Below, piece after piece: positions 2 through 29,229 of a stretch of 32,000 nt of DNA. Under the pieces are notes generated by a model. That model was not told the DNA's origin. It saw only the letters and a program-made list of their open reading frames with translations, and searched no databases. This DNA comes from Edaphobacter aggregans. GTDB lineage: Bacteria > Acidobacteriota > Terriglobia > Terriglobales > Acidobacteriaceae. The position numbers were made by a program, and so were the translations under genes. Numbering within the stretch: position 1 is the first letter of the stretch; every line of letters begins with the position of its first letter. The stretch spans positions 5,910,001 to 5,942,000 of the forward strand of contig NZ_RSDW01000001.1 of the NCBI RefSeq assembly GCF_003945235.1, read 5' to 3'.

Positions 2-1048
2 ACGATACTGCTTTGCCTGCGGCGAGCGATTTGGCGGCGTATGGCTTATAAGCGCTATCGAGCTGGAATTGAGACGCGCAATGTACTGATCGTCGGAGCG
101 GGGCGCGTTGGGCAGGCTTTACGCAATCATCTGGATTCGCTGGAGCACCTTGGATTCCGGTTCAAGGGCTTTGTAGCGCTGACAGAGCGGGAGGCAGAGT
201 CGGGGGACGCGGACGTGATCGGCGATGTGCGGAACTGCCTTTCTCTAGCACGGTCTCTGTTTGTCGACGAGATTTTCTTCTCCGTGCCGGGGGACAAGAG
301 GCTGGTTATCGGCATGGTGGAGGAGGCGCGAATGTTCGGCATCGATGTGCGCGTGGTGCCGGACTTGTATGACGGGCTGGCCTGGAATGCTCCGGTGGAG
401 TATATCGGTCAGTTTCCGACGATTCCACTGCATCGACGGGAGTTCCCGATTGGGGCGTTTCTGTTGAAGCGTGTGCTGGATATTACCATCTCGTCGATTG
501 CATTGCTGGTGGGGGCGCCGGCGATGCTGGCGACGGCGATCGCGGTACGAATGGATTCAGAGGGATCGATTTTCTACAGGGCGCAACGGATTGGAAGGAA
601 GGGGCGCACATTCGCCTGCTACAAGTTCCGCACGATGGTGCAGGATGCAGACAAGCGCAAGGCGGACCTTGAGCATATGAACGAGCGGGATGGCGTGCTG
701 TTCAAGATCGCGAATGATCCAAGGATTACGCGTGTAGGGGCTTGGTTGCGGAAGTATTCGCTGGACGAGCTGCCGCAGTTCTACAACGTTCTGAAGGGCG
801 ATATGAGTCTCGTTGGCCCGCGGCCTCCGGTGGCCTCCGAGGTGGAGCAGTATGATCTGGCGCATCTACGTCGCCTGAATGTGCTGCCCGGAATTACGGG
901 GCTTTGGCAGGTAGAGGCGCGGCAGGACCCCTCGTTTGACAGCTATATTTCGCTGGATACGGCGTATGTGGAGAATTGGAGCTTCTGGCTCGATTTGAAG
1001 ATTCTGGCACGAACGGTAAGTGTGGTGTTGAACGGTACGGGCACCTAA
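2..1048 (+). CDS. Polyprenyl glycosylphosphotransferase (EPS-priming bacterial sugar transferase, WbaP/EpsB-like); 5' partial
   Basis: The frame of ORF 41..1048 stays open back to nt 2, so the N-terminal TM region lies outside the window. It has a Rossmann-like VLIVGAGRVGQ segment, then a TM helix, then sugar-transferase motifs (SIFYRAQRIGRKGRTFACYKFRTM; DPRITRVGAWLRKYSLDELPQFYNVLKGDMSLVGPRP). Confidence 0.85.
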   Translation, partial: TILLCLRRAIWRRMAYKRYRAGIETRNVLIVGAGRVGQALRNHLDSLEHLGFRFKGFVALTEREAESGDADVIGDVRNCLSLARSLFVDEIFFSVPGDKRLVIGMVEEARMFGIDVRVVPDLYDGLAWNAPVEYIGQFPTIPLHRREFPIGAFLLKRVLDITISSIALLVGAPAMLATAIAVRMDSEGSIFYRAQRIGRKGRTFACYKFRTMVQDADKRKADLEHMNERDGVLFKIANDPRITRVGAWLRKYSLDELPQFYNVLKGDMSLVGPRPPVASEVEQYDLAHLRRLNVLPGITGLWQVEARQDPSFDSYISLDTAYVENWSFWLDLKILARTVSVVLNGTGT

Positions 1049-8030: not shown

Positions 8031-9302
8031 TTGCGGGAGGGAGTTATCAGCTACGAAACCGAAGTTGCCAGGCGGAGTTTTTTGAAGAGTGCGTTGGCAT
8101 TGGGCGCTGTTTCAACTGTGCCGGCGCTGGCGATGGAGCAGATATCAGAGGCCGCTGGCGGAGATCGGGCTTATTGGATTGAGGTTGTGCGGCGAGTATC
8201 TGATCCGGTGCTGGAGGCTGTAAGCAAAGGGCAACTGCGGGCGAAGATGCCGGTTGAGGCAGGCGCTGGGCTGGTAGAAGCTCGGAGTAAGTCGACGCAT
8301 CTGGAGGCGTTTGGGCGGTTGATTTCTGGTTTAGGGCCGTGGCTGGAGAGCGCAGAGATGAGCGGCGCGGAAGGTGAGTTGCAGGCTAAATATCGCGAGT
8401 GGGCGCGGGCGGGGATTCGGTATGGAACTGATCCGGCTTCGGCGGATTACATGAACTTTGGTTTGACGCCGCAGTCAGTGGTCGATGCGGCTTTTTTGGT
8501 GTTGGGGATTCTGCGGGCTCCGAAGCAGTTGTGGGAGCCGTTGGATAAAGCAACGAAGGCGAATCTGGTGAAGGCGCTGCAGGCTACGCGTTCGGTGTTG
8601 CCGGGGCAGTCGAACTGGCTGCTGTTTTCGGCGATGGTGGAAGCTGGTCTTTGCTTCATGGGGGAGTGGTGGGATTCAATGCGTGTGGACTACGCAATCC
8701 AGATGCATAAGCTGTGGTTCGTGGGTGATGGCACCTATGGCGATGGCCCACACTTTCATTGGGATTACTACAACAGCTTTGTAATTCAGCCGATGTTGAT
8801 GAAGGTGCTGGAGATCGTGCCGGCGAAGTCGGTGGCGTGGAGTGCGCTGAAGCCGGTGGCGTTGGAGCGAGCGCAACGGTACGCGGCGATACAAGAGCGG
8901 ATGATCAGTCCGGAGGCTACGTTTCCTGCGATCGGGCGGTCACTGACTTATCGGTTTGGAGCATTTCACCTTCTGAGCGACATCAGTCTTCGGAGAGAGC
9001 TACCGCAAGGTGTGTCGCCGGAGCAGGTGCGGTGCGCTCTGACGGCGGTGATGCGAAGGATGATCGAGCGGCCGGGGACGTTTGATGCGAAAGGCTGGTT
9101 GACGATTGGGTTTGCTGGGCATCAGCCTTCAATGGGCGAGCCGTATATTTCGACGGGGAGTTTGTATCTGTGTGCTGCGGCGTGGTTGCCGCTGGGACTA
9201 TCTGCGAGCGATGTCTTCTGGTCGGGCCCTGCAAAGCCATGGACAGCCCAGAGAATTTGGGGCGGAGAAAACATGATGGCTGATCATGCCTCCTCCGCCT
9301 AG
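8031..9302 (+). CDS. Tat-exported DUF2264 family protein
   Basis: Near-consensus Tat signal ARRSFLKSALALGAVSTVPALA; the start is TTG 8031, and no ATG lies upstream of the signal. DUF2264-like blocks are present: HLEAFGRL, GTDP, QSNWLLFSAMVE, GDGTYGDGPHFHWDYYNSFVIQP. Confidence 0.7.
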   Translation: MREGVISYETEVARRSFLKSALALGAVSTVPALAMEQISEAAGGDRAYWIEVVRRVSDPVLEAVSKGQLRAKMPVEAGAGLVEARSKSTHLEAFGRLISGLGPWLESAEMSGAEGELQAKYREWARAGIRYGTDPASADYMNFGLTPQSVVDAAFLVLGILRAPKQLWEPLDKATKANLVKALQATRSVLPGQSNWLLFSAMVEAGLCFMGEWWDSMRVDYAIQMHKLWFVGDGTYGDGPHFHWDYYNSFVIQPMLMKVLEIVPAKSVAWSALKPVALERAQRYAAIQERMISPEATFPAIGRSLTYRFGAFHLLSDISLRRELPQGVSPEQVRCALTAVMRRMIERPGTFDAKGWLTIGFAGHQPSMGEPYISTGSLYLCAAAWLPLGLSASDVFWSGPAKPWTAQRIWGGENMMADHASSA

Positions 9303-9313
9303 TTGGGTTCGAG

Positions 9314-11176
9314 TTATTCGGCTTTTCCTACACCATTGTTCTTGTAGGCCTTCTGGAGTACGGAGAAGGCCTGCTTCTTTTCGCCCTTTTCAGAGACCAG
9401 CCCCTTGCGGTTGAAGCCGTCCTGAATTTCGGGAAGGACGCGTCGTGGAGAGCGGAAGTCCATGAGGATCCAGGGGCTCATACCACGCAGCTGCGGGATG
9501 TTGTTGAGCATGATCAGCTGCTGGGTGAAGACGTTGGCCTGGAATTCTTCGGTCCAGCGCTTGTCGGCCGGGCCATGAAGGCCGAATTTAGCATCGGCTC
9601 CGAACTCGCTGATGATGAGCGGTTTCTGGTAGTCGATCTGCCATTTGGTCTGGGCGATATCGGATGGTTCGTGCTCGTACCAGCCGACATACTCGTTCGC
9701 GCCGATGACGTCGAGTGCTTTGCCAAGGGGATCGTCGACGATCTTGGTCATGCCGTTGGTGCGGACGAGAAGAGCAGCGGTGATGAGGCGCGTGGGATCG
9801 TATTCGCGGGCATCATTTGCGAGCGTGGTGAGGAACTTGGTGCGCTCGGGATTGTTCGGCGTCTCGTTGGCGACAGACCAGAGGATGACGGAGGCCTTGT
9901 TACGGTCGCGCCGAATCATCTCGTGAAGTTGGCTCTGCGCCAGGGCGAGGGTGTTCGGGTCGCCGAAATGACAGGCCCAGTAGACGGGGATCTCCGACCA
10001 GATGAGGACGCCGAGACGGTCGGCGGTGCGGGTCATGCGCTGATCGTGCGGGTAATGGGCAAGACGGGCATAGTTGCCGCCTAGCTCCTTGACCCAGCCG
10101 AGGAGGGTGTCGGCGTCTTCCTGGGTGTAAGCGCGGCCAGTACGAATGGGCGCTTCGGCGTGAATGCTGACGCCGTGAAGAAAAATGGGTTTGCCGTTGA
10201 GCAGAATCTGCGTGCCGCGAACTTCTACTGTGCGGAAGCCCATCTCGTCATCGAGAGTGTCTTCGCCTGTCTTCAGCTGGACCTTGTATAGGCGCGGATG
10301 ATCGGGCGACCAGAGCTCAAGGCCTCCGGGGTATAGCTGGATGGCAGCGCGTCCGTTGGCATCGACGGTGGCTTCGACTGTGGTCGGCGTGGGGGTTGCG
10401 ATGGAGACGCTAACTTTGTCTCCCGCGCTGGCGCCGATGACGTGAACGTAGCCGTCTATCTGATTCGTGGTGCCGCGGACGAGATGAAGATCGTAATCGT
10501 CGATGAAGCGGGTGGGGACTTCAACGAGTGCGACGTCGCGCGTGAGACCGCCGTAGTTGAACCAGTCCGTCTGAAGAGTGGGAACGCCTTCGGCGAGACG
10601 GGTCGCGTCTACAGCGATGACGACGAAGTTATCGCCGTCGTGGAGCAGGTCAGTGGCGTCGCAGTCATATGGAGTGAAGCCGCCCTCATGCTGGCAGGCG
10701 AATTTGCCATTGACCCAGACGAAGCTGCGGTAGTTGGCAGCGCCGACGTGGAAGAAGGTCCGCTGGTTCGCCTTCTTCTGGTAGGTGAAGTCGCGCTGAT
10801 ACCAGAGGGGGCCTTCATAGAAATGGAGCAACTCGCGCTGGGTGTTCCAGTCGCCAGGAACCTTGAGGGTGGGAGACTTGCTGAAATCGTACTCGGTGTT
10901 GTCTTTGTGCTCGTTGAGGAAGTAGCCGTCTTTGCGAAGCTCGTTGTGGAAGGTGTAGAGACCGGAGCCGTAGGGATCGATGATGGTGTGCCAGTCGCCG
11001 TCGAGACTGATTTGCTTGCGGTGATCGACGTTCACGAGGAGAGTCTTGTAGGTCCCTTCGTCGAGCTTTGTCTGGGCGATAGCGCGATGCTGAGCGGGTC
11101 CGATGAGGGTGGTGAGAGCGGCGACAGAAAAGAGTGTGGAGTGAAAGAGCTTTTGAGCGTGATTAGCAATGTGCAT
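9314..11176 (-). CDS. Secreted glycoside hydrolase family 2, beta-glucuronidase-like
   Basis: GH2 blocks align with E. coli GUS: CQHEGGFTPYDCDATD, DWFNYGGLTRDV, ARLAHYPHD, ILWSVANETP (acid/base Glu) and LIISEFGADA (nucleophile Glu). Starting at ATG 11176 gives a Sec signal, with AGAGGAA upstream. Confidence 0.9.
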   Translation of the reverse strand: MHIANHAQKLFHSTLFSVAALTTLIGPAQHRAIAQTKLDEGTYKTLLVNVDHRKQISLDGDWHTIIDPYGSGLYTFHNELRKDGYFLNEHKDNTEYDFSKSPTLKVPGDWNTQRELLHFYEGPLWYQRDFTYQKKANQRTFFHVGAANYRSFVWVNGKFACQHEGGFTPYDCDATDLLHDGDNFVVIAVDATRLAEGVPTLQTDWFNYGGLTRDVALVEVPTRFIDDYDLHLVRGTTNQIDGYVHVIGASAGDKVSVSIATPTPTTVEATVDANGRAAIQLYPGGLELWSPDHPRLYKVQLKTGEDTLDDEMGFRTVEVRGTQILLNGKPIFLHGVSIHAEAPIRTGRAYTQEDADTLLGWVKELGGNYARLAHYPHDQRMTRTADRLGVLIWSEIPVYWACHFGDPNTLALAQSQLHEMIRRDRNKASVILWSVANETPNNPERTKFLTTLANDAREYDPTRLITAALLVRTNGMTKIVDDPLGKALDVIGANEYVGWYEHEPSDIAQTKWQIDYQKPLIISEFGADAKFGLHGPADKRWTEEFQANVFTQQLIMLNNIPQLRGMSPWILMDFRSPRRVLPEIQDGFNRKGLVSEKGEKKQAFSVLQKAYKNNGVGKAE

Positions 11177-11209
11177 CGAGTTCCTCTGATGTCCCTGTGG
11201 ACATGTCCC

Positions 11210-11226
11210 TTTTATTGTCAATAAAA
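11210..11226. promoter_or_regulatory. Perfect 17-bp AT-rich palindrome; candidate operator upstream of the GH2 gene
   Basis: TTTTATTG-T-CAATAAAA lies 34-50 nt upstream of the GH2 ATG and contains TTGACA on the gene strand. A second perfect palindrome, GGACATGTCC (11199-11208), is adjacent. The function is inferred only. Confidence 0.3.
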
Positions 11227-11265
11227 ATGGCCCACTGTGCGCACCAATTTGTTGTTACATGAAAT

Positions 11266-12294
11266 TTATTGTTGGCGCGGAGGCAGGGACGCTCGAATGA
11301 GCTGGGAGAAATCCGGAGAATCTCCGGCAGCTAACGCGGCATCGTTGATACGCGAACGCCGGCGGAGTTCATTAAACGGCAGTGTCGTGTCCAGGAAACC
11401 ATGGTCGTAGAGATACCTGTCGGACCAACCATTGAGGAGATAACGGATATCCAATCGATTCGGTTTGCCGACAAGCCTCGCATAACGAACGATGTTGAGC
11501 GTGCAGTTGCTGACCAGCAGGTTATAAAATTCTGGCCTTTTGTAGAGTTCGTTGATCCGGTCAAGGTAGACAAGGAAAAGAGCTTGCGAACTTGCAGGAG
11601 GAACGTTGAGGGGATAAAAAAATACATCTTCGTTTCGGAAATTGGTGCGCACCCGTATGACATCGCGTTCATCGGCTACAACGTAGATCAATTCGAATGT
11701 CCTGAACATGGAGGGAAGGGGCGAGAAGCCTCCACCCATCTCGGGACGCGCTTCGATGGAGATGCTGAGAGGAGGCGCGTTATCGAAATTAAAACTCAGG
11801 AAGGTATGGGCTACAGGTCCAGGCATCCAGTAAGAGATGATGAAGTCCACCGAGGTCAGATGTGAGACCAGCACCTCGCGATCTTCGTATCGCACCGTGA
11901 AGTCATCTCTGCTGCGGTATTCAAAATCGCGGACGTCGGTGATTCGCACACGGTCTCCGTCGATGGTCACCCGGGGCATCACCGCGACATCGGTTCGCCA
12001 GTTACGATCATGCGTGGGTCGGAGTGAAAGGAACCATATCAGCACGAAGAGAGCCAGTCCCGCGTACACCAGATACATACGAGGTCTGCGGGCGCGCCAA
12101 AAGACCCAGCCGCTGAACACCATAAAAGCCAGCGCCAGTATCATTCGCAGCCAGAACCCTGGAAGTCTGGAGTAATAAATCGCCAGGGTTGGCCATGCGA
12201 TGAGTACCAATTGGCATAGAAATATCAGCCCCTTCAAGAGTCCACGGAGCAATTTTGAGAACCAGAAAGCCAGGGAATTGGGTCGCGGTTCCAT
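11266..12294 (-). CDS. DUF4105 (Lnb N-terminal periplasmic domain-like) membrane protein
   Basis: 342 aa. Three N-terminal hydrophobic helices are followed by RPTHDRNWRTDVAVMPRVTIDGDRVRITDVRDFEYRS...LTSVDFIISYW, which matches the DUF4105 pattern as I recall it. Confidence 0.7.
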   Translation of the reverse strand: MEPRPNSLAFWFSKLLRGLLKGLIFLCQLVLIAWPTLAIYYSRLPGFWLRMILALAFMVFSGWVFWRARRPRMYLVYAGLALFVLIWFLSLRPTHDRNWRTDVAVMPRVTIDGDRVRITDVRDFEYRSRDDFTVRYEDREVLVSHLTSVDFIISYWMPGPVAHTFLSFNFDNAPPLSISIEARPEMGGGFSPLPSMFRTFELIYVVADERDVIRVRTNFRNEDVFFYPLNVPPASSQALFLVYLDRINELYKRPEFYNLLVSNCTLNIVRYARLVGKPNRLDIRYLLNGWSDRYLYDHGFLDTTLPFNELRRRSRINDAALAAGDSPDFSQLIRASLPPRQQ

Positions 12295-12719
12295 AGAGAT
12301 CTCTCTTCCGTAACCTTGGTCCTCACTTTGAGTGAGAGCGGCGCTGAAATGGTGGGATCCCGGAATTGCGCGATGCTACTGAGAGATGAGCCTGAAAAGT
12401 GTCCGACGGCTAACTGCTGGAATTTGGAGGTGCGGGTCAGGATCAAACCCGCTCGCACTATCGACTGCAAGGCAAGTTATTGATTCTAAAGCATCATGTA
12501 GCAAACCAAAATTACATGAATTACAGGGGCCTAGCACAAATTAGCAGAAAAAGCCTGAGAAAGAGACTCGCGGCTTTACGCGAAGAAGCGTTCGTGGACG
12601 CGCCTCCAGAAGCCGTCATCAGCATACTATGGGCGCCGGGACACATCGATCTTTTTATGCCGTTTTCGTCAATCCGACGAATACACGGAAACCTAAGAAG
12701 TACACCGAAAAGCTGACCG

Positions 12720-13048
12720 ACCGAGAAGCGTTTCATCGCCTACCTGGTTGGCCAAGGCCGGCCGCGAAGTGAGTATCCGGTTGGTGTTTGGCGCTGCGCC
12801 GGCGAACATCATGACACTTATCGTTCGCGGCGGAAGGACCTGGCTTTCTGGGGAGTCTGTATCGGCATCGGGGGTGCGCTGGTAGTCAGCCGCCTGATGC
12901 GCTCACTGCTTTTCGATGTAGGAGTCACCGATGCTGTAATGTTTTCTCTGTTCCCACTCTTCTAGTTTGTATTGCTTTCTTTGCAAGCTACATTCCAGCG
13001 CGACGCGCTTCGCGCATTGATCCCAGCACTTCGTTACGATGCGAATAG
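12720..13048 (+). pseudogene. 5'-truncated, frameshifted C-terminal remnant of an ADOP/MacB-type FtsX permease
   Basis: Homology is split over three frames: FIAYLVGQGRPR / EVSIRLVFGAAPANIMTLIVRGG / LAFWGVCIGIGGALVVSRLMRSLLFDVGVTD / ASYIPARRASRIDPSTSLRCE-stop. This corresponds to the canonical permease tail (...QRTREIGIRMALGA...SLLFGVSPTD...YIPARRA.RIDP..ALR.E). Nothing upstream corresponds to the N-terminal part of such a protein. Confidence 0.75.
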
Positions 13049-13125
13049 GAGAACGCGGCTGACGGAGTGGCCTTCACAAGATATCGGGCGCTATCCTCTT
13101 CGGTCCGCCACCCTGCGAACCAGGG

Positions 13126-14688
13126 TCAATGCCCGGGTGCAGCGCAGGTAAAGCTGGCCGAGTCATTCGGATCACCGTTGCCGTTGTATTTCGCAACCTG
13201 AGGATACGGGCATATCGGCCGCGTCATCTCCACTTTCCTGGCAGGGCCGTATTTGGTCGCGATGATCGAGCCCGGCGCAGTGCCCAGCTCTTCCCATTTT
13301 TCGAGCGCGTCGAAGACGCCGTACTCTGGCCCCTTCGCTGTGGTCAAACCAAGTTGTCCAAAAGTCGCTGCCCCTGTCCCCCCGGCGCAATGGCCCATTC
13401 CAGGAACCATGTACAGGCGTATGAACTCTGCTGTCTTCTTGTCGCCCATCTTCATCTGCACCTGCTCATAGTATTGGATGGTGTTCAGAGGCGAGATCGC
13501 CGGATCGTTCCAGCCGTGATACAAGATCAGCTTGCCGCCGCGCGCTACGAAACGGCTAAGATCGGGATCGGTCGCGTCCAGTGCCTGCGCGGTCTTTGTA
13601 TCGGCTGCATGTACAGCCGCATCCGTGTTGGCGGTCAAAGCGTTCCAGCTCGGATCGTCAAACACCATGTAGCGGAAGTAGTTCTGCGTATATAGGCTCA
13701 CGTTGGGTCCGTCGCCTACGAGCCAGTTCTTCCATAGATGCACCTCGTCCCCAGGCATCAGGCCAGGAAATATCATGTGCCCCTCATCATCGGTTCCGCC
13801 GGCGTAAATCTTCTTGAGAGAGGCTATCTGAGGCGCGGTCAGGCAACTCAACTCGTCGCCCAGTTTGCACAACAGGGTTGCGGGATCAAAATGGCAGGTC
13901 CGCGGATCGTTAAGGATGCCGTCTTTCAACCCGTCCTGCGCATCGCACTGAGCCAGTACCGCTGCAGTAATTGCAGGGAGCTTGATGCTTGGGATATATC
14001 CCTCCGGGTTACCTATGAAGACCTTCGTCACATCCACCGTGGCTGCGATCAACTTTGTCCAGTTGTTGGCGGGTGCGCCGGCCAGAATCCCGTCGTAGTC
14101 GGCAGGGAACCGCTGCGCCTCCATCAGCGCTTCACGGCCACCGTCGGAGCAAGCGTCGAAATACGACTTCGTCGGAGGTTCGCCGTAGAACGTGTTGATG
14201 ATGGTTTTGGCACGCTCGGCGGTGAGGTGGACCGCCCGATAGCCGAAGTCCGTAATCTTCTCAGGATGCTGATAGGCCCAGCTCGCGTCTTGCGCGTCTG
14301 CCTGATGGCCAGCGTCAGTACCAGCCGTCGCGAAGCCGCGCTGGAGGCTGTTTCCGAGTTGGCCATAGTAGATAGAGCCCGCAAACCCTCCGTTGCCGAC
14401 TCCGAGAAAGCGATGGTTCCAACCTTTCTCCGGCATCCAGACCTCAAACCGAATGACGGAATCCGAGGTCGGATGAAGAACTCCGCTCACACGGCAAAAT
14501 GAGGGTAATCCCGTCAGGGGTGCGCCATAGGGTGGAGTAAAGCTTCCTCCACTGACCAGCTCGGCTGTCAAAATCTTGGTGTCGGGCCACGCGCTTTGGG
14601 TGAGCGCGTGGCAGTCGGCGACTTCTGCGGGAGCTGAGAAGGCGGCGACGGCGAGAAGGATAGCGAGCAGAAAAAGAAGGTTTCGCAC
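13126..14688 (-). CDS. Secreted tannase/feruloyl esterase family alpha/beta hydrolase
   Basis: 520 aa with a GTG start and a signal peptide. Family blocks: LPSFCRVSGVLHPTSDSVIRFEVWMPEKGWNHRFLGVGNGGFAG, GFATAGTDAGH, and YFDACSDGGREALMEAQRFPADYDGILAGAPA, which contains the nucleophile Ser. Confidence 0.9.
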   Translation of the reverse strand: MRNLLFLLAILLAVAAFSAPAEVADCHALTQSAWPDTKILTAELVSGGSFTPPYGAPLTGLPSFCRVSGVLHPTSDSVIRFEVWMPEKGWNHRFLGVGNGGFAGSIYYGQLGNSLQRGFATAGTDAGHQADAQDASWAYQHPEKITDFGYRAVHLTAERAKTIINTFYGEPPTKSYFDACSDGGREALMEAQRFPADYDGILAGAPANNWTKLIAATVDVTKVFIGNPEGYIPSIKLPAITAAVLAQCDAQDGLKDGILNDPRTCHFDPATLLCKLGDELSCLTAPQIASLKKIYAGGTDDEGHMIFPGLMPGDEVHLWKNWLVGDGPNVSLYTQNYFRYMVFDDPSWNALTANTDAAVHAADTKTAQALDATDPDLSRFVARGGKLILYHGWNDPAISPLNTIQYYEQVQMKMGDKKTAEFIRLYMVPGMGHCAGGTGAATFGQLGLTTAKGPEYGVFDALEKWEELGTAPGSIIATKYGPARKVEMTRPICPYPQVAKYNGNGDPNDSASFTCAAPGH

Positions 14689-14902
14689 CGGTTGCCGAAG
14701 AGTATCATTCTGCCTGCCGCAAGACCAGACTACAAATTCCGCCTAGGTGTAGGGAGTAGTCTCTCACCCAGGAAGAAACCAGGACCGAATATTCGAAGAC
14801 AGGCCCCGGCTGGATCGACAGGCCTGCAGATTAGCAGGGGATTGCGTCCGAGATAATCCTCAAATGTCCGATGAATTGGGTCAAGGAACCTCGATGCGCC
14901 CG

Positions 14903-14935
14903 AAAAGGCTAGCAGCAGTTATCTTGCTGCCAGCC
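14903..14935 (-). terminator. Rho-independent terminator after the CE8-like gene
   Basis: On the minus strand, GGCTGGCAGCA-agataac-TGCTGCTAGCC forms an 11-bp stem with one mismatch, followed by TTTT. It lies 18 nt downstream of the stop codon at 14953. Confidence 0.6.
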
Positions 14936-14952
14936 CTTGGTTTGCTGCGGTA

Positions 14953-17733
14953 TCACGGGAGTTTAGCGCGGATGCTGCCCCCGAACGTGCCTCCTGCATA
15001 AGTCCCAGCAAATTTCTCCACCACCGCGGATCCTGGAACCCCCGCTAATGACGGGAAGATCACAGTGACCGAGTTGGATGCTCCAGGCGCAAGATCCCCG
15101 AGCGATGCTGTGGGAATCGTTCCACTGACAGTGCCGAGGGTTGCCATATTCAACTGCACATTTTGAGCAGTACCGGTGCCGGTGCTCGTTACTGTTACGA
15201 CAGCCTGATAACCACCAGCGACTTCGCTGAGTTGCGAGGTGGTCACGAGTTGGATCGTTGGATGAGAGATCTGGAAAAAGCTATAGGCATTGCTGTTTCC
15301 AGACGGAACGGTTCCGCTCCAGCGTGTGCCGGATCCCCCATAACTGTTCGGACTTACCGTTCCTTGCAGGAACAATGTATCGGAATCAACCGTGTTGTAA
15401 CCGGTGGCTGTAAATGTGTTTCCTATGATCGACAGCGTTATGTAGGTGTTGGGTTTGAACACGCCCGTCAACTCTGAGTTTGTGTCTATGGGTGAGCTCA
15501 CGCCGTTGATGTGCTGATACAACTGGAACATCACTTCGGTAGCCGATTGGGTAGTTCTCCAGAACCGCAACGAATATCCATTGCCTGAACGTGGATCATA
15601 CTTGATGTAAATATCCGCATTTTGAATAGTGTTTCCCGGGGTTGAATCTTCTCCAGTACCAGGACTTCCAAATCCCTGGCCGGCCGTCTTCTCAGGCGTC
15701 ATCACGACGGAGACCTGCTCATCTCCGGCCGGGGTATCTGTCTGATAGAGAAGTGCTGCTCCCTGGGAGGAAGCCCTGAGTCCCCAGTTATTGACGAAAG
15801 TTCCTCCGATAGGCGTCGGTTCCGAAGTCCAGGTACCGAGAACGGTCCAGTACCCGCTGATGTATGCGCTCTCCGGATTGGGTGGAAAGTTCAGGAAATT
15901 GGGGGAGACAGTCGTCGACACGATGTTCAAGATCGAAATGGGTGTCGTCGTGATCGTGGTTGCTGTCGCACCCGGATTACTGATGTCCCACTTCGGTTGA
16001 ATTGTTGCTTCCAGATAATTACCGACGTCTCCTCCTTGGAGCGTGTACACCTGCAGGGGGATATTGCCATTGCTTATTCCCACAATTCGCGGATTACTGC
16101 AGGACGGGTCGGCGCAGCTATACCAGGTAATGATCGACTGGTCTGTCCGGTTCGGCACTGGATTCAAAGTGTAGTTGAGACTAATGGTCCCATTAATGGG
16201 GGCGCCGATTGTGGGCTGCGATGCAAACGTCGGAGGACTTATAAATGGTGGCTGCACAAAGACCCAGGCGGTTATGTAAAAGCCATCGGATGCGGTAGCG
16301 TTGATGGGCACGTACTGGGAAACACCTGTGTTGTTCGTGCCGCTTACGATGACGCTCGAACCCGACGACTGGTTGAGGGTAACGAGGGGGGAGGAGGTTG
16401 ACCAGGTTATGGTACTCGGCGCGCGGGCAGGAAAGACCGTTGCGCTGATTGTAGCTGTACTTTGATTGGTAATGATCGACGGAGAGCCATTGGTGATTCC
16501 CATTCCAAAAGGCAAATTCCCCTGTCCTGCGGCATTCGTGGCCGCGAGCCCTGGAACTGTCTGTCCAGTATAAGAGGCCAAAAAGCCAGCTGGATCCCAG
16601 CTATCCTGCACGCCAGTTGGAGTGGCGCTCAGGATATTTCCCGGAGTAAAAGCTGCCGCCTCTTGCGCGGACAACTCTCTCGATAAATTATGAGTAATTG
16701 GCCCCTGCGAAGCGTCGGCAATTAAGACAGGATTACCGTTGGTGTCGACATTGTTGTACGTAAGTGAATAAAGGTTCTGGTGAGCAGTTGGCGCAAAGCC
16801 GACAATCCACGAAATTGTGTTACCCGCCGTATTTTCAGGGAGTATGCAATTGATAAGAACGGCCGGGAGCGTCGAGCCTTCGGGGTAGGCGCCTCCCGAT
16901 GTTGGGCCCTTGTAGAACTGAAATTGTCCTCCGCTTGGCACGGTAAACGTGGTATTGACGAAGACCGTTCCTGTTACAGTTCCTTCTCCACTTCCTGTGG
17001 GGAAATTGAGCACGGAATTTTCCCAGACGCTTTCAGTTCCACCACCTATGAAGTCGTTTGTGCCTTCGATGTAGACGCTGTTAAAGTAGGCACGCGTGCT
17101 CTGGATAAACGTCGTATCGAGCCTGCTCAGCAGCGCGACGTGATCGAGGATTTCTTTGTCGCCGGAGATTTGGAAGGCCACTGCTTGTGTGATTACAGGC
17201 GATCGCTCCGTTAGATTTAGAGCGGCGTTACCGGGATATTCATAATTAAGATTGCAATAATTGAGGATTGTAAGATTGACCGCGGTAAACCCAGTTGCGT
17301 TGACGATCATGACATATCCGTTATAGGAAGCCGTCGGGCTGCCTGCCCCCTCTTGGTTACCCAGATTGCCTGCGAGCACTACATTACGGTGGTCATTAGT
17401 AAGCCCCAGCAAGGTAATGTAATTTTTCGTGATCATGATGCCAGGCGTGGACACACCGCCATTCAAGTTGTAGACATTGGGTTTAATTCCGATCACTGTC
17501 GGATTGGTGGGCGTTCCTGCCGGAGCGGCTGCATAAGCTGCCTGCAAGGTCGAGTACTGATTGAGAGCAGGATTATCCTGTGCAAGCGAGCCGTCAACAA
17601 GTATGTTGTACGGCATATTAGTGGTATCCAAGGCGGAGAGAGGCGAGGGTCCGTTTGAATCCTGCGCGTACGCCATAGAGCCGACGGCCGCTATGACGAT
17701 GACGAAAAAGCGGAACACTATGCGGTTGAACAT
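14953..17733 (-). CDS. Secreted 926-aa multidomain protein with an N-terminal pectinesterase-like (CE8-like) beta-helix
   Basis: Signal peptide MFNRIVFRFFVIVIAAVGSMAYAQ. CE8-like motifs are present: QAVAFQISGD, LDTTF (in place of QDTLY) and GTNDFIGGG (in place of GTVDFIFG). These are followed by a Big_2-like segment (ITWSTSSPLVTLN...), a possible lectin/glucanase-like region, and the shared C-terminal module. Confidence 0.65.
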   Translation of the reverse strand: MFNRIVFRFFVIVIAAVGSMAYAQDSNGPSPLSALDTTNMPYNILVDGSLAQDNPALNQYSTLQAAYAAAPAGTPTNPTVIGIKPNVYNLNGGVSTPGIMITKNYITLLGLTNDHRNVVLAGNLGNQEGAGSPTASYNGYVMIVNATGFTAVNLTILNYCNLNYEYPGNAALNLTERSPVITQAVAFQISGDKEILDHVALLSRLDTTFIQSTRAYFNSVYIEGTNDFIGGGTESVWENSVLNFPTGSGEGTVTGTVFVNTTFTVPSGGQFQFYKGPTSGGAYPEGSTLPAVLINCILPENTAGNTISWIVGFAPTAHQNLYSLTYNNVDTNGNPVLIADASQGPITHNLSRELSAQEAAAFTPGNILSATPTGVQDSWDPAGFLASYTGQTVPGLAATNAAGQGNLPFGMGITNGSPSIITNQSTATISATVFPARAPSTITWSTSSPLVTLNQSSGSSVIVSGTNNTGVSQYVPINATASDGFYITAWVFVQPPFISPPTFASQPTIGAPINGTISLNYTLNPVPNRTDQSIITWYSCADPSCSNPRIVGISNGNIPLQVYTLQGGDVGNYLEATIQPKWDISNPGATATTITTTPISILNIVSTTVSPNFLNFPPNPESAYISGYWTVLGTWTSEPTPIGGTFVNNWGLRASSQGAALLYQTDTPAGDEQVSVVMTPEKTAGQGFGSPGTGEDSTPGNTIQNADIYIKYDPRSGNGYSLRFWRTTQSATEVMFQLYQHINGVSSPIDTNSELTGVFKPNTYITLSIIGNTFTATGYNTVDSDTLFLQGTVSPNSYGGSGTRWSGTVPSGNSNAYSFFQISHPTIQLVTTSQLSEVAGGYQAVVTVTSTGTGTAQNVQLNMATLGTVSGTIPTASLGDLAPGASNSVTVIFPSLAGVPGSAVVEKFAGTYAGGTFGGSIRAKLP
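14956..15258 (-). repeat. Shared C-terminal module, copy 1 (last 101 aa of the CE8-like protein)
   Basis: TIQLVTTSQLSEVAGGYQAVVTVTSTGTGTAQNVQLNMATLG...VEKFAGTYAGGTFGGSIRAKLP-stop. It aligns end to end with copy 2. A 22-nt run (14975-14996) is identical to 17818-17839. Confidence 0.85.
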
Positions 17734-17795
17734 GGAAATGGACCTTTCAATTGTGATGATGTTGTTGTCTGAAGAAACGAAGCTGGCATCGAACT

Positions 17796-19874
17796 CTACG
17801 GCAATGATGCGCGGATACTGCCCCCGAACGTGCCTCCTGTGTATGTCCCGGTGTATCGTTCCGCAGCAGGGGCACCATCAGCGGCCGCCGAGGACGAGAA
17901 GGTTAACGTGACCATCGCCGTTCCCCCGCCATGTGGGATGTTGCCCAGCGATACTGGAACCAAAGCGCTCGCTGCGCCCAGAGTCGCTCCGGTCAACTGC
18001 ACGTTCTGCGCCGTGCCCGTTCCGTTATTGGTAACGGTAACGACTGCCTGGTACCCTCCACCGCTCAACTTGCTTAGCACCGCCGTGGTGATTAGCTGTA
18101 CGGTTCCCGCGAGCGCGCCTGAACCGGTCAAATTCACCGTCTGAGGACTGCTCGACGACCAATCCGACAAGCTCAGGGTGCCTGTGCGTGTTCCTTCCGC
18201 GGTTGGAGAAAAGTTAACCGAGACGCTGCAGGAACTGCCGCCCGCCAACGAACCTACGCAACTGTTGCCGCCTACGGAAAAGTCGCCTGTAGCCGTCACC
18301 GTGTTGATCAACAGTACGCCTGCTCCTTGAGCATTGCTCAAGGTCACCGTCTCGGTACTGCTGCTTCCCTCAATTACTGTGCCAAACACGGGGGCGGCCC
18401 CAACACTAGGCGACGCAACTGCACCGGAGAGCACCAGCGCCGGGACATCCTGGGTCGCATCCGGCGTGGACATCCGCAGCGTTGGGGTCCAAAAGCTGCA
18501 ACTCGGCACCAGCGGCGTAGTTCCTGCGGCTGCCGCCGCCGCGAGGGTCGAAGCGACAGAGATTCCAGTTGCACTTACGGTGTTGGTTGATGGCCACGAT
18601 GCAATCGCGGCGTTAGCCAACGCAACCGGATCCACAGTGGTATCCGGATTATTCCACCGCGCATCCAAGACACAGACCGCAGGCTGCGTCAGGTTGCCGT
18701 AGTCATAGACGATATGACTGGGAGAGTAGAAGTTTCCTGGATCAGTGAAGGCATTGTTCTGCGCGTAGATATGCGAGGACACACCCGCGCCCCAGCTATA
18801 CACATACGCACCGTATCCGAGTGGATGATTGATGGAATAGTAGTTGTCGTATAGGTCGATCTCGCCATAGCGGACCCGCGGCGAGCGTTCTTCCGCGTTG
18901 AGCCACATGTTGTGGTGAAAGGTTGTCCGCAGATGCCCGTTGTCCGAAGTAGTGCCGTCGCCGCCGCCGATCAGGTTGGTTTTGCCATGATTCGCAAAGA
19001 TCGTCCAGGAAACCGTTCCCAGGTCGGAGCCACTGGTAATGTCCAGTTCTCCATCGTGCCACTGATAGGGGCGGTTGAAAAAGATCGGCTGCGTATCGTC
19101 GGTGTCGGGCTCATCGGTAAAGGTGCAATGGTCGACCCACCAGTTCTTCCCGCCCAGGACGCTGATCAAGTCGAAGCTCGAGTTGAAGTTGCCGGGGAAG
19201 GAGCTGTTCGCTGCCTGATAGAACGGGTTGACGGGATTCATGTCAGTAAAGGTCCAAACTGGGTAGCAATCGATCGCGTCCGCGAACGTGATATTGCGGA
19301 TAATGACATTGCTCACCCCGCTCCCGATGGTCAAGTTGATGCCTTTGATGGTGGCAAGGCTCCCCACTCCGACGATGGTGGTGTTCGAACCCACCGCGAG
19401 CACTACGTGAGGGTTATATGCGGTCTCGGATTTCGATAATGCCGATGTCTGCGCGGCGCTGGGCGCGGAAAACTCGGTGGCCGATGCGATGTAATCTGCC
19501 TCTGTGTACGGCGCTACGTCGAAATTCGGGCAAGGCGGCGCACCCGCTAGTACATTGTTGTTCGCATCGACGACCCCGGTGATCGTGCCTGCCACGTTGA
19601 TGATCTTCGAGGTGGAACTCTTGTTGTTCAGCGCGGCAGCGAGCTGGGCCATGGTTGACACCGTATAGATATTGGCGGGAAGGGCAGCCGAACCGCCCGT
19701 TGTCCCGGGCGCCGTCGCGGCCCAGCCGTCATTGGCAGGAAGCACCTGCGTTGCGAGGTCAGGAGGAGGGGTACGGAAGGGGCCAGCTTGCGCCCGAGCG
19801 GTTATCGTCAGGCCCACGGGCGCGACCGCGCACACGGCACACAGCAACAGCCCGGCAACAATGTGATTGCTCAT
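17796..19874 (-). CDS. Secreted pectate lyase, polysaccharide lyase family 1
   Basis: PL1 blocks: NVIIRNITF, NWWVDHCTF, HDGELDITSGSDLGTVSWTIFANHGKTNLIGGGD and ERSPRVRYGEIDLYDNYY. Starting at ATG 19874 gives the signal MSNHIVAGLLLCAVCAVAPVGLTITARAQA, with GGAGA upstream. The C-terminus carries a choice-of-anchor-D-like domain and then the shared module. Confidence 0.9.
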   Translation of the reverse strand: MSNHIVAGLLLCAVCAVAPVGLTITARAQAGPFRTPPPDLATQVLPANDGWAATAPGTTGGSAALPANIYTVSTMAQLAAALNNKSSTSKIINVAGTITGVVDANNNVLAGAPPCPNFDVAPYTEADYIASATEFSAPSAAQTSALSKSETAYNPHVVLAVGSNTTIVGVGSLATIKGINLTIGSGVSNVIIRNITFADAIDCYPVWTFTDMNPVNPFYQAANSSFPGNFNSSFDLISVLGGKNWWVDHCTFTDEPDTDDTQPIFFNRPYQWHDGELDITSGSDLGTVSWTIFANHGKTNLIGGGDGTTSDNGHLRTTFHHNMWLNAEERSPRVRYGEIDLYDNYYSINHPLGYGAYVYSWGAGVSSHIYAQNNAFTDPGNFYSPSHIVYDYGNLTQPAVCVLDARWNNPDTTVDPVALANAAIASWPSTNTVSATGISVASTLAAAAAAGTTPLVPSCSFWTPTLRMSTPDATQDVPALVLSGAVASPSVGAAPVFGTVIEGSSSTETVTLSNAQGAGVLLINTVTATGDFSVGGNSCVGSLAGGSSCSVSVNFSPTAEGTRTGTLSLSDWSSSSPQTVNLTGSGALAGTVQLITTAVLSKLSGGGYQAVVTVTNNGTGTAQNVQLTGATLGAASALVPVSLGNIPHGGGTAMVTLTFSSSAAADGAPAAERYTGTYTGGTFGGSIRASLP
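17799..18104 (-). repeat. Shared C-terminal module, copy 2 (last 102 aa of the PL1 lyase)
   Basis: TVQLITTAVLSKLSGGGYQAVVTVTNNGTGTAQNVQLTGATLG...AERYTGTYTGGTFGGSIRASLP-stop. Confidence 0.85.
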
Positions 19875-20050
19875 CGCAATGTCTCCAATTGTGAAGTTGC
19901 TGAAGCACACAAAGGGCCCTAAAGCTCGGTCATTCTGCTCGTCATGGTTCAACCAAACTGTTCGATACGATGAGATAGTCAGACCACAGGAAAGCCAAAT
20001 TCAAGCCACCTTCCAATTGCGAGGTGGCTAACCCGACGAAAATCGAACAA

Positions 20051-20637: not shown

Positions 20638-21033
20638 TCAACCGTTCTTTGGATAACGATCGCCACTGTGTTCAGCTTGAGCGTCAGGTTCGGGGAAGTC
20701 GGTGTCGTTATCCTTCAACATCTCATCTTGATCCCGGTGACCGAGTTGGCCTGCCAGAGAGACATTCTCAGGATCGCGTTTGTCCTTCGGCTGAGCATTG
20801 CCTTCCACGGCGCCCTTGTTTACCCACGAGTCACGCGAAGTGTTCTCTGCAGCTTCGGGAATGCCTGGGCCTACTTCGTCTATGGCCTCCACGACGCTGT
20901 CATCGGTTGCGGGCCGGCCATCGCGAACGCTCTCGGCACCGAGGGAATTCTCGCTGCCAGCAGGAGCTTTACGGTCGATCTTACTGAGTTCCTCGGCGGT
21001 TTCCTTAATGGTCTCGCGTGGGAGCATGTTCAT
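20638..21033 (-). CDS. Small acidic, low-complexity (probably disordered) protein, unknown function
   Basis: 131 aa from ATG 21033, with a strong GAGGAGGG about 9 nt upstream. It is rich in D, E, P, G and S, has no hydrophobic core or signal peptide, and its codon pattern resembles that of neighbouring genes. The ORF-track start at 21156 is probably a spurious extension. Confidence 0.6.
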   Translation of the reverse strand: MNMLPRETIKETAEELSKIDRKAPAGSENSLGAESVRDGRPATDDSVVEAIDEVGPGIPEAAENTSRDSWVNKGAVEGNAQPKDKRDPENVSLAGQLGHRDQDEMLKDNDTDFPEPDAQAEHSGDRYPKNG

Positions 21034-21174
21034 CGTGTCGTCCCTCCTCTTGAGAGGTAGGATGCAGGAAATAACTCCATGGTCGTTGGGAGCCAGGCTG
21101 TTCTCCGCTATGAGTGGAACTCCATGTGTTGGCACATCGGTGAAGGCGGCATACACGCAAGAATGAGGGTGACG

Positions 21175-25871: not shown

Positions 25872-25889
25872 ACGGTATGGAGAGAAGTC

Positions 25890-27119: not shown

Positions 27120-27240
27120 TCTGATCGCAAATAATTCGAAATTGTTCGGAACGTCGTGCTGAATGCTTACTCGGTTCCCGGGCCCCCTGCAGACAGTAGT
27201 TCTCCTTAACAGGTCAGGCCAACCCAAGAGAGGAACGGAA

Positions 27241-29229
27241 ATGAAAGCACTGATATCAGTTCGTCAACTGTTTGCATTGCCAACACTGGCAATGCTACTT
27301 GCCCCGGCAGCGCTTGCGCAGACGCTCACAGGCAATGTGAATTTCACCTCGAAGCTCCAGCAGATCGATGGATTTGGTGTTGCTGCTACTTTTGGCAGGC
27401 CCACCTACATCCAGACAGCGACTGGCAACGTTCCAAGCCAGATCGTCGACATGCTCTTCAATCCAAAGACGGGTGCTGGCCTCTCCATGTTGCGGATGGG
27501 CATAGATGACGTCGTATCCTCCAACGCCACGGATGTCAGTAATGCGGCAGGTATCGCGAACTCAGGCATTTTCATTGTGAACACCCCTCCTAATTCGTGC
27601 AGCGAAACTCCCACCTATACCTGGGACCATTCTGCCGGTGGAGAGATCTGGATAGGTCAACAAGCCGTAAAGTACGGCGTCAATCGCTTCTATGCTGATT
27701 CCTGGGGCGCTCCCGGCTACATGAAGACGAACAACAACGCGAATTCCGGTGGAGTCATCTGCGATGGAACCGCCAGCACCCAGGGGACGGGAAGCCACTG
27801 CCTTGCCAATGGATTCTCGGACTGCCGCGCGGCCTATGCCAACTACCTGGTGCAGTACGTCAAGGACTACCAGGGAGATGGCGTTCCCATCAGCGACCTC
27901 GGTTGGATCAACGAGCCAAACACAAATCAACCCGCCTACGCTTCCATGACACCCACCTCAGCCCAAGCGATCACCTTTCAGGATGTTTACGGGCCTATCC
28001 TGCGAGGATCCGGCCTCAAGGTGAATCTGGTATGTTGCGATGTCTTTAACTGGAGCACTGCGAACACCTATGACACTGCCATCGTTAACGACCCAACGGC
28101 TGATTCCTTCGTGGATATCTACTCCGCGCACGAATACGGGCAGGTTGCGAACTTCGTGCAGACAACGGCGACGGCCGGCAACCCGATCAAGAAAAACTGG
28201 ATGACCGAATGGGGTCCGCAATCTCCAGTAGCGTGGAATCCGTATTGGGATTCAAGCTTTGCCGGCACATCAACCAATTTCAACGACGGCATGTTCATCG
28301 CCAACGATATCTCCAATGCGCTCAATTTGGGCCACATCAGCTCCTATCTTTATTGGTATGCCGATTCCACATCGACCACGGGAGCCATGGTTGAAATAGG
28401 CGGTCCCTATGTCTCCGGTCAAACCTACCAGTCCTGGCCGTACTTCACCTATACGGTTCCGGCACGCTTTTACGCGCTTGCCCAATTCTCCCGCTTCGTA
28501 CGCCCGGGGGCTTACGAGGTCACGATGAATACGAACACGTCTGCCTGCTCAAGAATCACTCAAGGTGTAGGCAATTGCCTTGCGACGACCGCCTTCGTTA
28601 GTCCCGATGGCTCCAAGGTCATCAACGTCGTGAACAATTACACCTCGGGCGCCCAAACGCTCAACCTGACTCTTGATGCAGGGTCCGCCGACTGGATACC
28701 GACTGCCTATATCACCGACGCGGATACCATCCCCAACTCCGTTGCTAACTCCGCCTCGCCCGAACCGCTGAACACTGCGATTGCAAATACTTCCGGCGTA
28801 GCATCGGTAAGCGGAACGACGCTGACGGCAACCTTCCCGATCCGGTCGATGACGACTATTGTTCTTACCCCACCGGTCACGGCCGGTCCCGTGCAGCTGG
28901 TTGTCACGCCGTCGCATTTTGCCGAAGGCGATGGCACCGTTCTCTCCACACTAACAGTTACTAACAACGGCACAGGCACCGCGCAGAACGTACAAGTGAC
29001 GAGCGCGAGTCTCGGTACGTCCGTAGGAACCACGATGCCGACAGGTCCGCTTCCCTTTATGGTCGGCACCATCGCTCCGGGAAGCTCGGCGGTCGTGTAC
29101 GTCAACTATGCAGCCGGTCAAACGCCTGGAGCAACAGCGATCGAGAAGATTACGGGAACCTATACGAGCAGCAGCGGCAATGGCAACTTCGGCGCTTCCT
29201 TCCGTGCCGTTGTTCCGGCTCTTCCATAA
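27241..29229 (+). CDS. Secreted glycoside hydrolase family 30, specificity not resolvable
   Basis: Starting at ATG 27241 (GAGAGGAA upstream) gives the signal MKALISVRQLFALPTLAMLLAPAALAQ. GH30 blocks: QQIDGFGVAATFG, LSMLRMGID, ADSWGAPGYMKTN, YANYLVQYVKDYQGDGVPISDLGWINEPN (acid/base Glu) and WMTEWG (nucleophile Glu). It ends in the shared C-terminal module. Confidence 0.88.
   Translation: MKALISVRQLFALPTLAMLLAPAALAQTLTGNVNFTSKLQQIDGFGVAATFGRPTYIQTATGNVPSQIVDMLFNPKTGAGLSMLRMGIDDVVSSNATDVSNAAGIANSGIFIVNTPPNSCSETPTYTWDHSAGGEIWIGQQAVKYGVNRFYADSWGAPGYMKTNNNANSGGVICDGTASTQGTGSHCLANGFSDCRAAYANYLVQYVKDYQGDGVPISDLGWINEPNTNQPAYASMTPTSAQAITFQDVYGPILRGSGLKVNLVCCDVFNWSTANTYDTAIVNDPTADSFVDIYSAHEYGQVANFVQTTATAGNPIKKNWMTEWGPQSPVAWNPYWDSSFAGTSTNFNDGMFIANDISNALNLGHISSYLYWYADSTSTTGAMVEIGGPYVSGQTYQSWPYFTYTVPARFYALAQFSRFVRPGAYEVTMNTNTSACSRITQGVGNCLATTAFVSPDGSKVINVVNNYTSGAQTLNLTLDAGSADWIPTAYITDADTIPNSVANSASPEPLNTAIANTSGVASVSGTTLTATFPIRSMTTIVLTPPVTAGPVQLVVTPSHFAEGDGTVLSTLTVTNNGTGTAQNVQVTSASLGTSVGTTMPTGPLPFMVGTIAPGSSAVVYVNYAAGQTPGATAIEKITGTYTSSSGNGNFGASFRAVVPALP
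28888..29226 (+). repeat. Shared C-terminal module, copy 3 (last 113 aa of GH30; more divergent)
   Basis: PVQLVVTPSHFAEGDGTVLSTLTVTNNGTGTAQNVQVTSASLG...IEKITGTYTSSSGNGNFGASFRAVVPALP-stop. It has the same block order as copies 1 and 2, with mostly synonymous DNA differences in the TNNGTGTAQNVQ block. Confidence 0.8.

Follow-up and report, generated by a model that had tools for sequence, protein, structure and literature searches.

A C-terminal Ig-like module of exported enzymes in Terriglobia is linked at the gene level to a small PEP-CTERM protein and may act as a docking domain

Among described bacterial systems, those closest to the element reported here are the C-terminal domain (CTD) of type IX secretion system (T9SS) cargo, the PEP-CTERM signal, the cohesin–dockerin pair and the CLIPPER-type domains of adhesins. 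The T9SS CTD of Bacteroidota is an immunoglobulin (Ig)-like sandwich of seven strands and 70–100 residues that forms the very C-terminal end of enzymes and adhesins exported by Sec, and the T9SS machinery has been placed in phyla of the Fibrobacteres–Chlorobi–Bacteroidetes (FCB) group (PMC11285876). For the PEP-CTERM signal of the exosortase (EpsH, Xrt) system, a role in directing proteins to or across the outer membrane of diderms that produce exopolysaccharide has been proposed (PMC1569441). In cohesin–dockerin systems a C-terminal module docks diverse polysaccharide-degrading enzymes non-covalently on a separately encoded, cell-anchored partner. CLIPPER domains (DUF11, PF01345) usually occur in tandem in the middle of fibrillar adhesins, and many of them have an intramolecular Lys–Asn isopeptide bond with a catalytic Asp/Glu (PMC12617251). 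Here we describe a module of ~100 residues that ends three exported enzymes, a CE8 pectinesterase-family protein, a PL1 pectate lyase and a GH30-family glycoside hydrolase, all encoded in one 32,000-nucleotide stretch of the Edaphobacter aggregans genome (the window; Table 1). In its proposed logic the module resembles cohesin–dockerin, and in its shape and position the T9SS CTD; it belongs to neither family. Genes for the module and genes for a small PEP-CTERM protein, here called the partner, were found to accompany each other in both directions, and this linkage makes the module a candidate docking domain.

The earlier note on this DNA, which was made from its letters and translations, had claimed that two adjacent enzymes active on pectin end in the same module. 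Both open reading frames (ORFs) lie on the minus strand, and the CE8 and PL1 proteins (coding sequences CDS A and CDS B) are identical at 59 of their 103 C-terminal residues (57%; BLASTP E 7e-16), with no significant BLASTP alignment outside them, in line with the earlier statement that the remainder of the two proteins is unrelated. The third copy was likewise recovered, as the last ~113 residues of the GH30-like ORF (CDS C); it is 43% identical to the module in a six-frame search, carries two insertions of four residues each and ends in ...FRAVVPALP, three residues past the ends of copies A and B. The 22-nucleotide run reported as shared by modules A and B is indeed identical in both genes. 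It lies over the invariant GGTFGGS; zero matches were expected in shuffles, and the run was equalled or exceeded in ~1% of codon-resampled simulations (P ~0.01). Modules A and B are 62% identical in nucleotides and use the same codon at 37% of identical residues, and their synonymous sites are near saturation. Given the codon usage the run is only mildly unusual, and with modules this far apart in nucleotides and codons it is therefore not evidence of a recent duplication. Conservation between orthologues was 91% in the body and 90% in the module for PL1, 86% and 87% for GH30, and 82% and 63% for CE8.

An exhaustive search of 1.84 billion cluster representatives with a profile of the module returned 2,442 proteins at E ≤ 1e-3 (938 at E ≤ 1e-10), and the named sources were almost all Terriglobia. 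Among the best 137 of the 2,442 matches, 125 were single-copy, and in these the module ended exactly at the C-terminus in 101, 1–6 residues from it in 19 and 13 residues from it in one. The distance was thus 0–6 residues in 120 of the 125 single-copy representatives, as it was in all 27 module ORFs at 26 loci in species-representative genomes, which came from Edaphobacter, Granulicella, Terracidiphilus, Bryocella, uncultured Acidobacteriaceae, Bryobacterales and one metagenome-assembled genome (MAG) labelled Verrucomicrobiae. That the module abuts the stop codon and closes on a conserved motif, both of which had been proposed from the window alone, therefore holds across the family. Its most conserved segment is the last hairpin, G-T-Y-x-G-G-T-F-x-x-S-x-R-x-x-L-P, in which all 189 sequences had the terminal Pro and 97% had the Arg four residues before it. 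The gap between the preceding domain and the module is 3–6 residues, with no long linker.

Twelve giant proteins (1.5–6.3 thousand residues) matched the core of the profile only (positions ~12–105), in 5–45 tandem copies, and had other tails; P0193 is a giant repeat protein that matches the core in this way. P0117, P0118, P0123, P0145, P0187, P0189 and others never matched the last ~15 profile positions and end in LPXTG-like, T9SS-like or other tails. The repeats of the giant proteins are ordinary stalk repeats of the CLIPPER type (PMC12617251). The real positional exceptions are P0141 and P0143, GH10 xylanases that carry the module N-terminally, right behind the signal peptide; this architecture is conserved, and the N-terminal module still ends in ...RAVLP before the chain continues (locus L039, 1239–3989). 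No partner gene was present on the 4.3-kb contig of P0143. Terminal placement (120 of 125) thus prevails over internal placement, and rare N-terminal copies such as P0143 stand as a reservation.

The partner was recognized when the ORFs around the 26 genome loci were listed, as a recurrent ORF of 165–200 residues that, at most of these loci, begins a few tens of bp past the stop codon of the module gene. It has ~175 residues and consists of a signal peptide, a beta-rich body of ~110 residues with the motif ...LNGDSF...DDSGF..FPLSL.PG...G.Y.G.F.I.GG... and a PEP-CTERM tail of the form V-P-E-P-G/S...LL.TGL...RR. In six of six partners tested the tail scored above the TIGR02595 cutoff (18.3–24.4 bits versus 16) and also matched Pfam PF07589, and P-E-P was invariant in the partner alignments and found in 119 of the 120 partners listed. 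By the published definition the partner is a bona fide PEP-CTERM protein, having the signal peptide, the P-E-P, the transmembrane helix and the basic cluster, and it differs in this from the module enzymes, which lack PEP-CTERM themselves. An AlphaFold2 model of the partner (42-sequence alignment) shows a signal-peptide helix, a beta-sandwich core with a predicted local distance difference test score (pLDDT) of ~95 and a C-terminal transmembrane helix (residues 151–176). The body matched no curated family; its composition is 8.7% Asp, 0.2% Lys and 0% Arg, with conserved Asp clusters at LNGDSF and DDSGF. The domains of module and partner are not homologous (hhalign probability 0.3%). In a database search the partner family comprised at least 247 clusters of 162–206 residues, of which the few named entries are called "hypothetical protein" or "PEP-CTERM motif". 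The only apparent natural fusion of module and partner, P0166, was rejected as a frameshift artefact. At locus L022 (4796–6303), two more ORFs 3' of the partner matched only the PEP-CTERM tail of the partner profile, which suggests a local cluster of PEP-CTERM proteins.

In the forward direction, a partner gene was located 27–132 bp downstream, on the same strand, in 24 of the 32 module genes outside the window, in a set of loci that had been chosen by the module alone. The linkage spans at least 14 distinct passenger families, and by cluster 11 were all paired, three were mixed and five were all orphan. In the reverse direction, six of six partner proteins on long contigs follow a module-ending gene (seven of seven loci returned), and of the 32 metagenome loci that were found from the partner and extend far enough upstream, 30 have a module-ending gene 29–101 bp before the partner, the two exceptions being the most distant partner relatives. 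Overall, a module gene precedes 36 of 38 partner genes. In the 354 kb scanned before the partner-seeded metagenome scan, all 32 partner ORFs lay behind a module gene. The distances among modules and among partner bodies were also correlated (Mantel r 0.64, P < 1e-4, n = 28), i.e., the two have diverged together. Since the operon linkage runs both ways and involves a PEP-CTERM protein, it ties the module to the exosortase system in trans. Shuffling of module and partner as a mobile 3' cassette was considered and rejected, as L002/L008 proved to be a whole-gene duplication; weak hints of shuffling remain, for example in L033 versus L003 and L004. The MAG "uncultured Verrucomicrobiae" carries one module gene without a partner (L009, CAWCJK010000009.1) and one with a partner (L014, CAWCJK010000008.1), and these genes reflect either horizontal transfer or a mislabelled or mis-binned genome.

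A search of the window for the partner found none after any of the three module genes, GH30 included. A metagenomic contig (L031) is collinear with the PL1–CE8 locus of the window at 88–91% DNA identity (blastn) and has ~700 extra bp (6546–7246) exactly between the PL1 stop and the CE8 start, where the window has ~3 bp. The extra segment holds a partner gene that is interrupted by frameshifts, as are all genes of that assembly. PL1 is therefore paired with a partner in a relative, and the window genome cleanly lacks this pairing. The species does have partners at its disposal, since a cassette that pairs a nuclease tail with a partner is present elsewhere in E. aggregans DSM 19364 (L012).

The earlier note had placed the module on proteins with a signal peptide and unrelated catalytic domains, and this description extends well beyond the window. 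All module carriers have Sec signal peptides visible in sequence, and 57 Pfam families were identified upstream of the module in 58 apparently full-length proteins. Further scans of single proteins and with NCBIfam models added to these, and the passengers together include MBG_2, Big_3_5, NHL and cadherin-like repeats, CE15 glucuronyl esterase, CBM9, GH30, PL1, CE8, GH28 and GH10, an alpha-1,3-glucanase domain, ExeM/NucH nucleases, and alginate-lyase-like, F5/8-type-C and Kelch domains. Among NCBIfam models, the passengers matched choice-of-anchor D (8 proteins), Q and X, the GloVer repeat, ExeM and ScyF-like NHL, and in several cases the curated name points to a GlyGly-CTERM or PEP-CTERM anchor. 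The choice-of-anchor D, Q and X and GloVer families lie directly upstream of the module, where their names imply an anchor; they describe the passenger region and not the anchor, and the module matches none of them. Because the passengers act on unrelated substrates, DNA included, a substrate-binding role for the module is unlikely.

The analysis establishes the domain, where it sits and how it is distributed, its linkage to the partner gene in both directions, the parallel divergence of the two and the nature of the partner as a PEP-CTERM protein. From these we infer physical binding between the two proteins, an interface, a dependence on exosortase and a final location, and we lean slightly towards the explanation that the module is a lineage-restricted, C-terminal Ig-like docking domain that attaches enzymes to a PEP-CTERM adaptor. 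The enzyme and its small partner, which is usually encoded 30–130 bp downstream in the same operon, would both be exported by Sec. The partner would be held at the inner membrane by its PEP-CTERM helix, with exosortase processing to follow, and the tail of the enzyme would bind the acidic domain of the partner, probably via the invariant Arg and the free ...R-x-x-L-P terminus. In this way an enzyme that itself lacks a sorting signal would be directed to, or kept at, the cell surface or the exopolysaccharide matrix in trans. The window enzymes, all three of which keep the tail, would use partners encoded elsewhere in the genome. Docking is also supported by the charge complementarity between the acidic body of the partner and the almost uncharged module with its invariant Glu and Arg. 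The module also behaves like a sorting-related C-terminal domain in being terminal, single-copy, lineage-restricted and present in many paralogues, in following unrelated Sec-exported passengers and in exposing a terminal motif. Of the surface-tag hypothesis put forward in the earlier note, the terminal Ig-like module on Sec proteins stands; as to its self-sufficiency, the evidence points instead to a link with PEP-CTERM in trans. We would give an even chance to the broader proposal that this is a two-gene display cassette of Terriglobia, in which thousands of secreted enzymes and adhesin-like proteins ride on, or are tethered by, cognate PEP-CTERM adaptors.

The proposed docking would differ from cohesin–dockerin in several respects. 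The dockerin is helical and binds Ca2+, and cohesins stand in multi-site scaffoldins shared by many enzymes; here module and partner are single beta-sandwiches each, the module has no dockerin match and is predicted to be all-beta, and the pairing mostly joins a single enzyme gene to a single partner gene within an operon. The anchor would be PEP-CTERM in a diderm, versus S-layer homology domains or sortase in the monoderm cohesin–dockerin systems.

Several points weigh against docking on a PEP-CTERM adaptor. Operon linkage and co-divergence also arise from co-inheritance of neighbouring genes. The three module genes of the window all lack a partner, ~25% of module genes elsewhere are orphans with intact modules, and the GH10 proteins with the N-terminal module have no partner nearby. 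In addition, the action of exosortase on PEP-CTERM proteins is only partly established (PMC1569441). The window genes and the orphans imply that the partner is not needed in cis, and the orphans together with the rare N-terminal copies indicate that an adjacent partner is not obligatory and keep rival explanations in play.

One such rival, the hypothesis of the earlier note, which we regard as unlikely, is that the module is a self-sufficient C-terminal signal for export across, or attachment to, the outer membrane that an undescribed translocon or sortase recognises directly, in the manner of the T9SS CTD, with the partner as an accessory shuttle or irrelevant. The fold lends itself to this explanation. 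The AlphaFold2 model of the module is a seven-strand beta-sandwich with a mean pLDDT of 94 (48-sequence alignment), so that an Ig-like sandwich is confidently predicted, and the conserved basic residue on the last strand and the Gly-rich loop recall T9SS CTDs (PMC11285876), as do the tolerance of short C-terminal extensions and the many paralogues with unrelated passengers. The Sec signal peptides on all carriers, and the orphan modules that stay intact without a neighbouring partner, also fit. Against this, no curated CTD or sorting model was matched even at E ≤ 10; this included the T9SS CTD/Por_Secre_tail models (TIGR04183/PF18962, TIGR04131), which were run on isolated modules and on whole proteins. 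The T9SS CTD was also absent from the top 50 structural matches of the module in Foldseek. T9SS is reported only in FCB-group phyla (PMC11285876), the host phylum of the module is not known to possess one, and no paper linking T9SS to Acidobacteriota was found in the literature. T9SS cargo, unlike the module, is not coupled to a small PEP-CTERM gene, and the rare N-terminal copies of the module are a further difference; membership of T9SS was rejected on sequence and taxonomy. As had been pointed out from the window alone, the module has none of the hallmarks of known tags (no PEP, LPXTG or transmembrane/Arg tail of its own): it ends in ...GGTFGGSIRAxLP with no hydrophobic helix and has no PEP-CTERM match (TIGR02595/PF07589). 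Family scans of the whole window gave no candidate for sorting machinery, and no exosortase (EpsH/Xrt) lies within it, the only related gene being the sugar transferase at its start. A strict C-terminal export signal would not predict the N-terminal copy of P0143, and the near-obligate two-way linkage to a PEP-CTERM gene would be left unexplained.

Equally doubtful, in our estimation, is a passive role, in which the module would be an Ig-like spacer, a stabiliser or a general polymer-binding domain from the CLIPPER/CARDB superfamily with no part in sorting, and the PEP-CTERM neighbour would merely be co-regulated. Scans of isolated modules against Pfam and NCBIfam at E ≤ 10 gave only sub-threshold similarities, to DUF11/CLIPPER (PF01345; 21.6 bits for copy C versus a gathering threshold of 24.6, 13.0 for copy B, no match for copy A), to DUF7507 (CLIPPER_2; best score 20.0 bits versus 27) and to CARDB (PF07705; 14.9 and 17.5 bits versus 22.7). 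Judged by these scores, the module is distantly related to CLIPPER, DUF11 and CARDB and is in no curated family. Foldseek returned generic Ig-like folds only for the module (best E 1.7e-3, TM score ~0.6), and with module and partner as queries the generic sandwiches were GAE/adaptin ears, TRAP-beta, the GH123 N-domain and macroglobulin domains; a profile search of Protein Data Bank sequences with the module gave nothing (best E 0.066). The guess of a CARDB/Ig-like fold in the earlier note was therefore right at the level of the superfamily, and a match to a characterised carbohydrate-binding module or Ig family was not found at threshold in Pfam or NCBIfam. A passive domain would accord with these similarities, with the match of the profile core to the tandem stalk repeats of giant adhesins and with the possibility of an N-terminal position. 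It accords less well with a module that lies at the extreme terminus in 96%, is never repeated, unlike CLIPPER domains, and closes on an invariant Pro and Arg, its terminal hairpin being specific to its family versus CLIPPER and CARDB. Trp and clusters of surface aromatics, as are typical of carbohydrate-binding modules, are missing from the module, and the substrates of its passengers are unrelated, DNA included. Its composition is low in Lys (1.6%) and Cys (0.1%), with no position of conserved Lys, and it is almost uncharged except for an invariant Glu and the invariant Arg near the C-terminus; the Lys–Asn–Asp triad of many CLIPPER members is not conserved in it. Because neither module nor partner has a conserved Lys or Cys, an isopeptide bond of the CLIPPER type is excluded. 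Lastly, co-regulation by itself predicts neither a partner family confined behind module genes nor the co-divergence of the two.

It is less probable still that module and partner interact for some other purpose, either with the partner as a periplasmic chaperone or holdase of the upstream protein or with the pair as a two-chain lectin for the cell's own exopolysaccharide or for plant polymers. The same linkage and co-divergence would be expected in such cases, and the Asp clusters of the partner are potential binding sites for Ca2+ or sugars. For a chaperone, the PEP-CTERM signal that 119 of 120 partners carry would be superfluous, and for the lectin we found nothing that separates such a role from anchoring. 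A recent local duplication or gene conversion of the 3' segment as the source of the similarity of A and B, which the earlier note had offered in the form of spread by local duplication, is very improbable and was rejected: the genes are adjacent and the identical run is longer than in 99% of codon-resampled simulations, yet the modules differ by the amounts given above in DNA and in codons, orthologues in other genomes keep the module variant of each enzyme, and the family has 2,442 cluster representatives.

The three enzymes were assigned as follows, with classical Sec signal peptides judged by inspection of the translations. The CE8 protein comprises a signal peptide, a Pfam Pectinesterase domain (residues 58–242, E 7.8e-10), ~450 residues without a family match and the module; residues ~380–825 match no Pfam family at E ≤ 0.01 and are conserved among orthologues (body 82% identical to P0158). 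In the PL1 lyase the signal peptide is followed by Pectate_lyase_4 (Pfam, E 1.5e-32), a choice-of-anchor D Ig-like domain (58.6 bits versus a cutoff of 45, residues 512–600 of the 718-residue ORF) and the module. The GH30 protein has a signal peptide (MKALISVRQLFALPTLAMLLAPAALA|Q), Pfam matches to Glyco_hydro_30, GH30C and GH59, and the module at its C-terminus. The longest ORFs start too far upstream for PL1 (17796–19952) and GH30 (27163–29229); the real starts, 19874 (MSNHIVAG...) and 27241 (MKALISV...), agree with orthologues and with the NCBI proteins, the PL1 start having been corrected from orthologue P0135 and the exact match to RSL19312.1.

Around the module genes, 8031–19874 is a run of genes for plant cell walls and uronic acids that ends in CE8 and PL1 and looks like a locus for utilisation of pectin and rhamnogalacturonan. 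Between the pectin genes and GH30 (21224–26762) are HtpG (Hsp90), a histidine kinase, an OmpR-type response regulator and a SpoIIE-family phosphatase, none of which has an evident link to the module. An acidic ORF upstream of PL1 was rejected as a partner; it lacks a signal peptide and PEP-CTERM and may not be a real gene. The glycosylphosphotransferase at the start of the window scored below the cutoff for the XrtA/PEP-CTERM-associated subfamily TIGR03013. Taken together, the genes of the window other than the three module genes encode a sugar transferase, NAD synthase, a DsbA-like protein, a permease, an amine oxidase, DUF2264, GH2, Lnb_N, tannase, HtpG, a two-component system, a SpoIIE phosphatase and an ABC-2 transporter.

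Table 1. Features of the window, with the position of partner genes at other loci
Feature	Coordinates	Strand	Details
Exopolysaccharide-type polyprenyl glycosylphosphotransferase	41..1048	+	TIGR03025, 363 bits versus cutoff 296; cut by window start
DUF2264 with twin-arginine translocation (TAT) signal	8031..9302		
GH2 beta-glucuronidase-like gene	9314..11221		
Lnb_N gene	11266..12294		
Tannase/feruloyl esterase	13126..14688		
CDS A, CE8 pectinesterase-family protein	14953..17733	-	926 residues; exact match to RSL19311.1 (Edaphobacter aggregans)
Module copy A	14956..15258	-	Last 101 residues, TIQLVTT...GGTFGGSIRAKLP, up to stop codon; module profile E 1.3e-43
22-nucleotide run, first copy	14975..14996		Encodes (A/T)GGTFGGS of conserved last hairpin
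Predicted Sec signal peptide of CDS A	17665..17733	-	MFNRIVFRFFVIVIAAVGSMAYA|QD; by eye from translation
PL1-to-CE8 intergenic spacer	17734..17795	-	62 bp; no partner gene here
CDS B, PL1 pectate lyase	17796..19874	-	692 residues; exact match to RSL19312.1
Module copy B	17799..18104	-	Last 102 residues, TVQLITT...GGTFGGSIRASLP; module profile E 2.3e-43
22-nucleotide run, second copy	17818..17839		Identical to 14975..14996
Choice-of-anchor D/ASH-type Ig-like domain	18153..18419	-	Directly upstream of module B; NCBIfam NF012200; Pfam ASH, HYDIN_VesB Ig
Acidic 172-residue ORF upstream of PL1 gene	20638..21156	-	No Pfam match, signal peptide or PEP-CTERM
CDS C, GH30-family glycoside hydrolase	27241..29229	+	662 residues; exact match to RSL19319.1
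Module copy C	28888..29226	+	Last 113 residues; tblastn E 8e-20; module profile E 1.8e-34
Partner genes at other loci	~30–130 bp 3' of module genes		L001-L004, L006-L008, L010-L017, L020-L024, L026-L028, L031-L038, L040-L074

Neither the module nor the body of the partner has a curated model in Pfam (2025 copy) or NCBIfam (release 20), and public annotation gives only the catalytic parts or "PEP-CTERM sorting domain-containing protein". The literature searched describes neither the module nor the partner family nor the two-gene cassette, contains no account of sorting via a cognate PEP-CTERM adaptor, and gave nothing relevant on an acidobacterial C-terminal sorting domain or PEP-CTERM adaptor. 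What appears to be new here is the split, two-gene arrangement, which suggests sorting or anchoring through the known PEP-CTERM system.

Acidobacteriota are among the most abundant soil bacteria and are major degraders of plant polymers, and we know of no mechanism by which they keep their exoenzymes near the cell. The pairing described here offers a concrete, testable route by which pectinases, xylanases, esterases, nucleases and adhesins could be retained at the surface or in the matrix. Both domains merit curated family models, and the cognate pair of beta-sandwiches could serve as a tool for protein display or ligation. If docking of this kind takes place, exosortase sorting would also reach clients that bear no such signal themselves, and the set of proteins sorted by PEP-CTERM and exosortase would be much larger than motif searches suggest.

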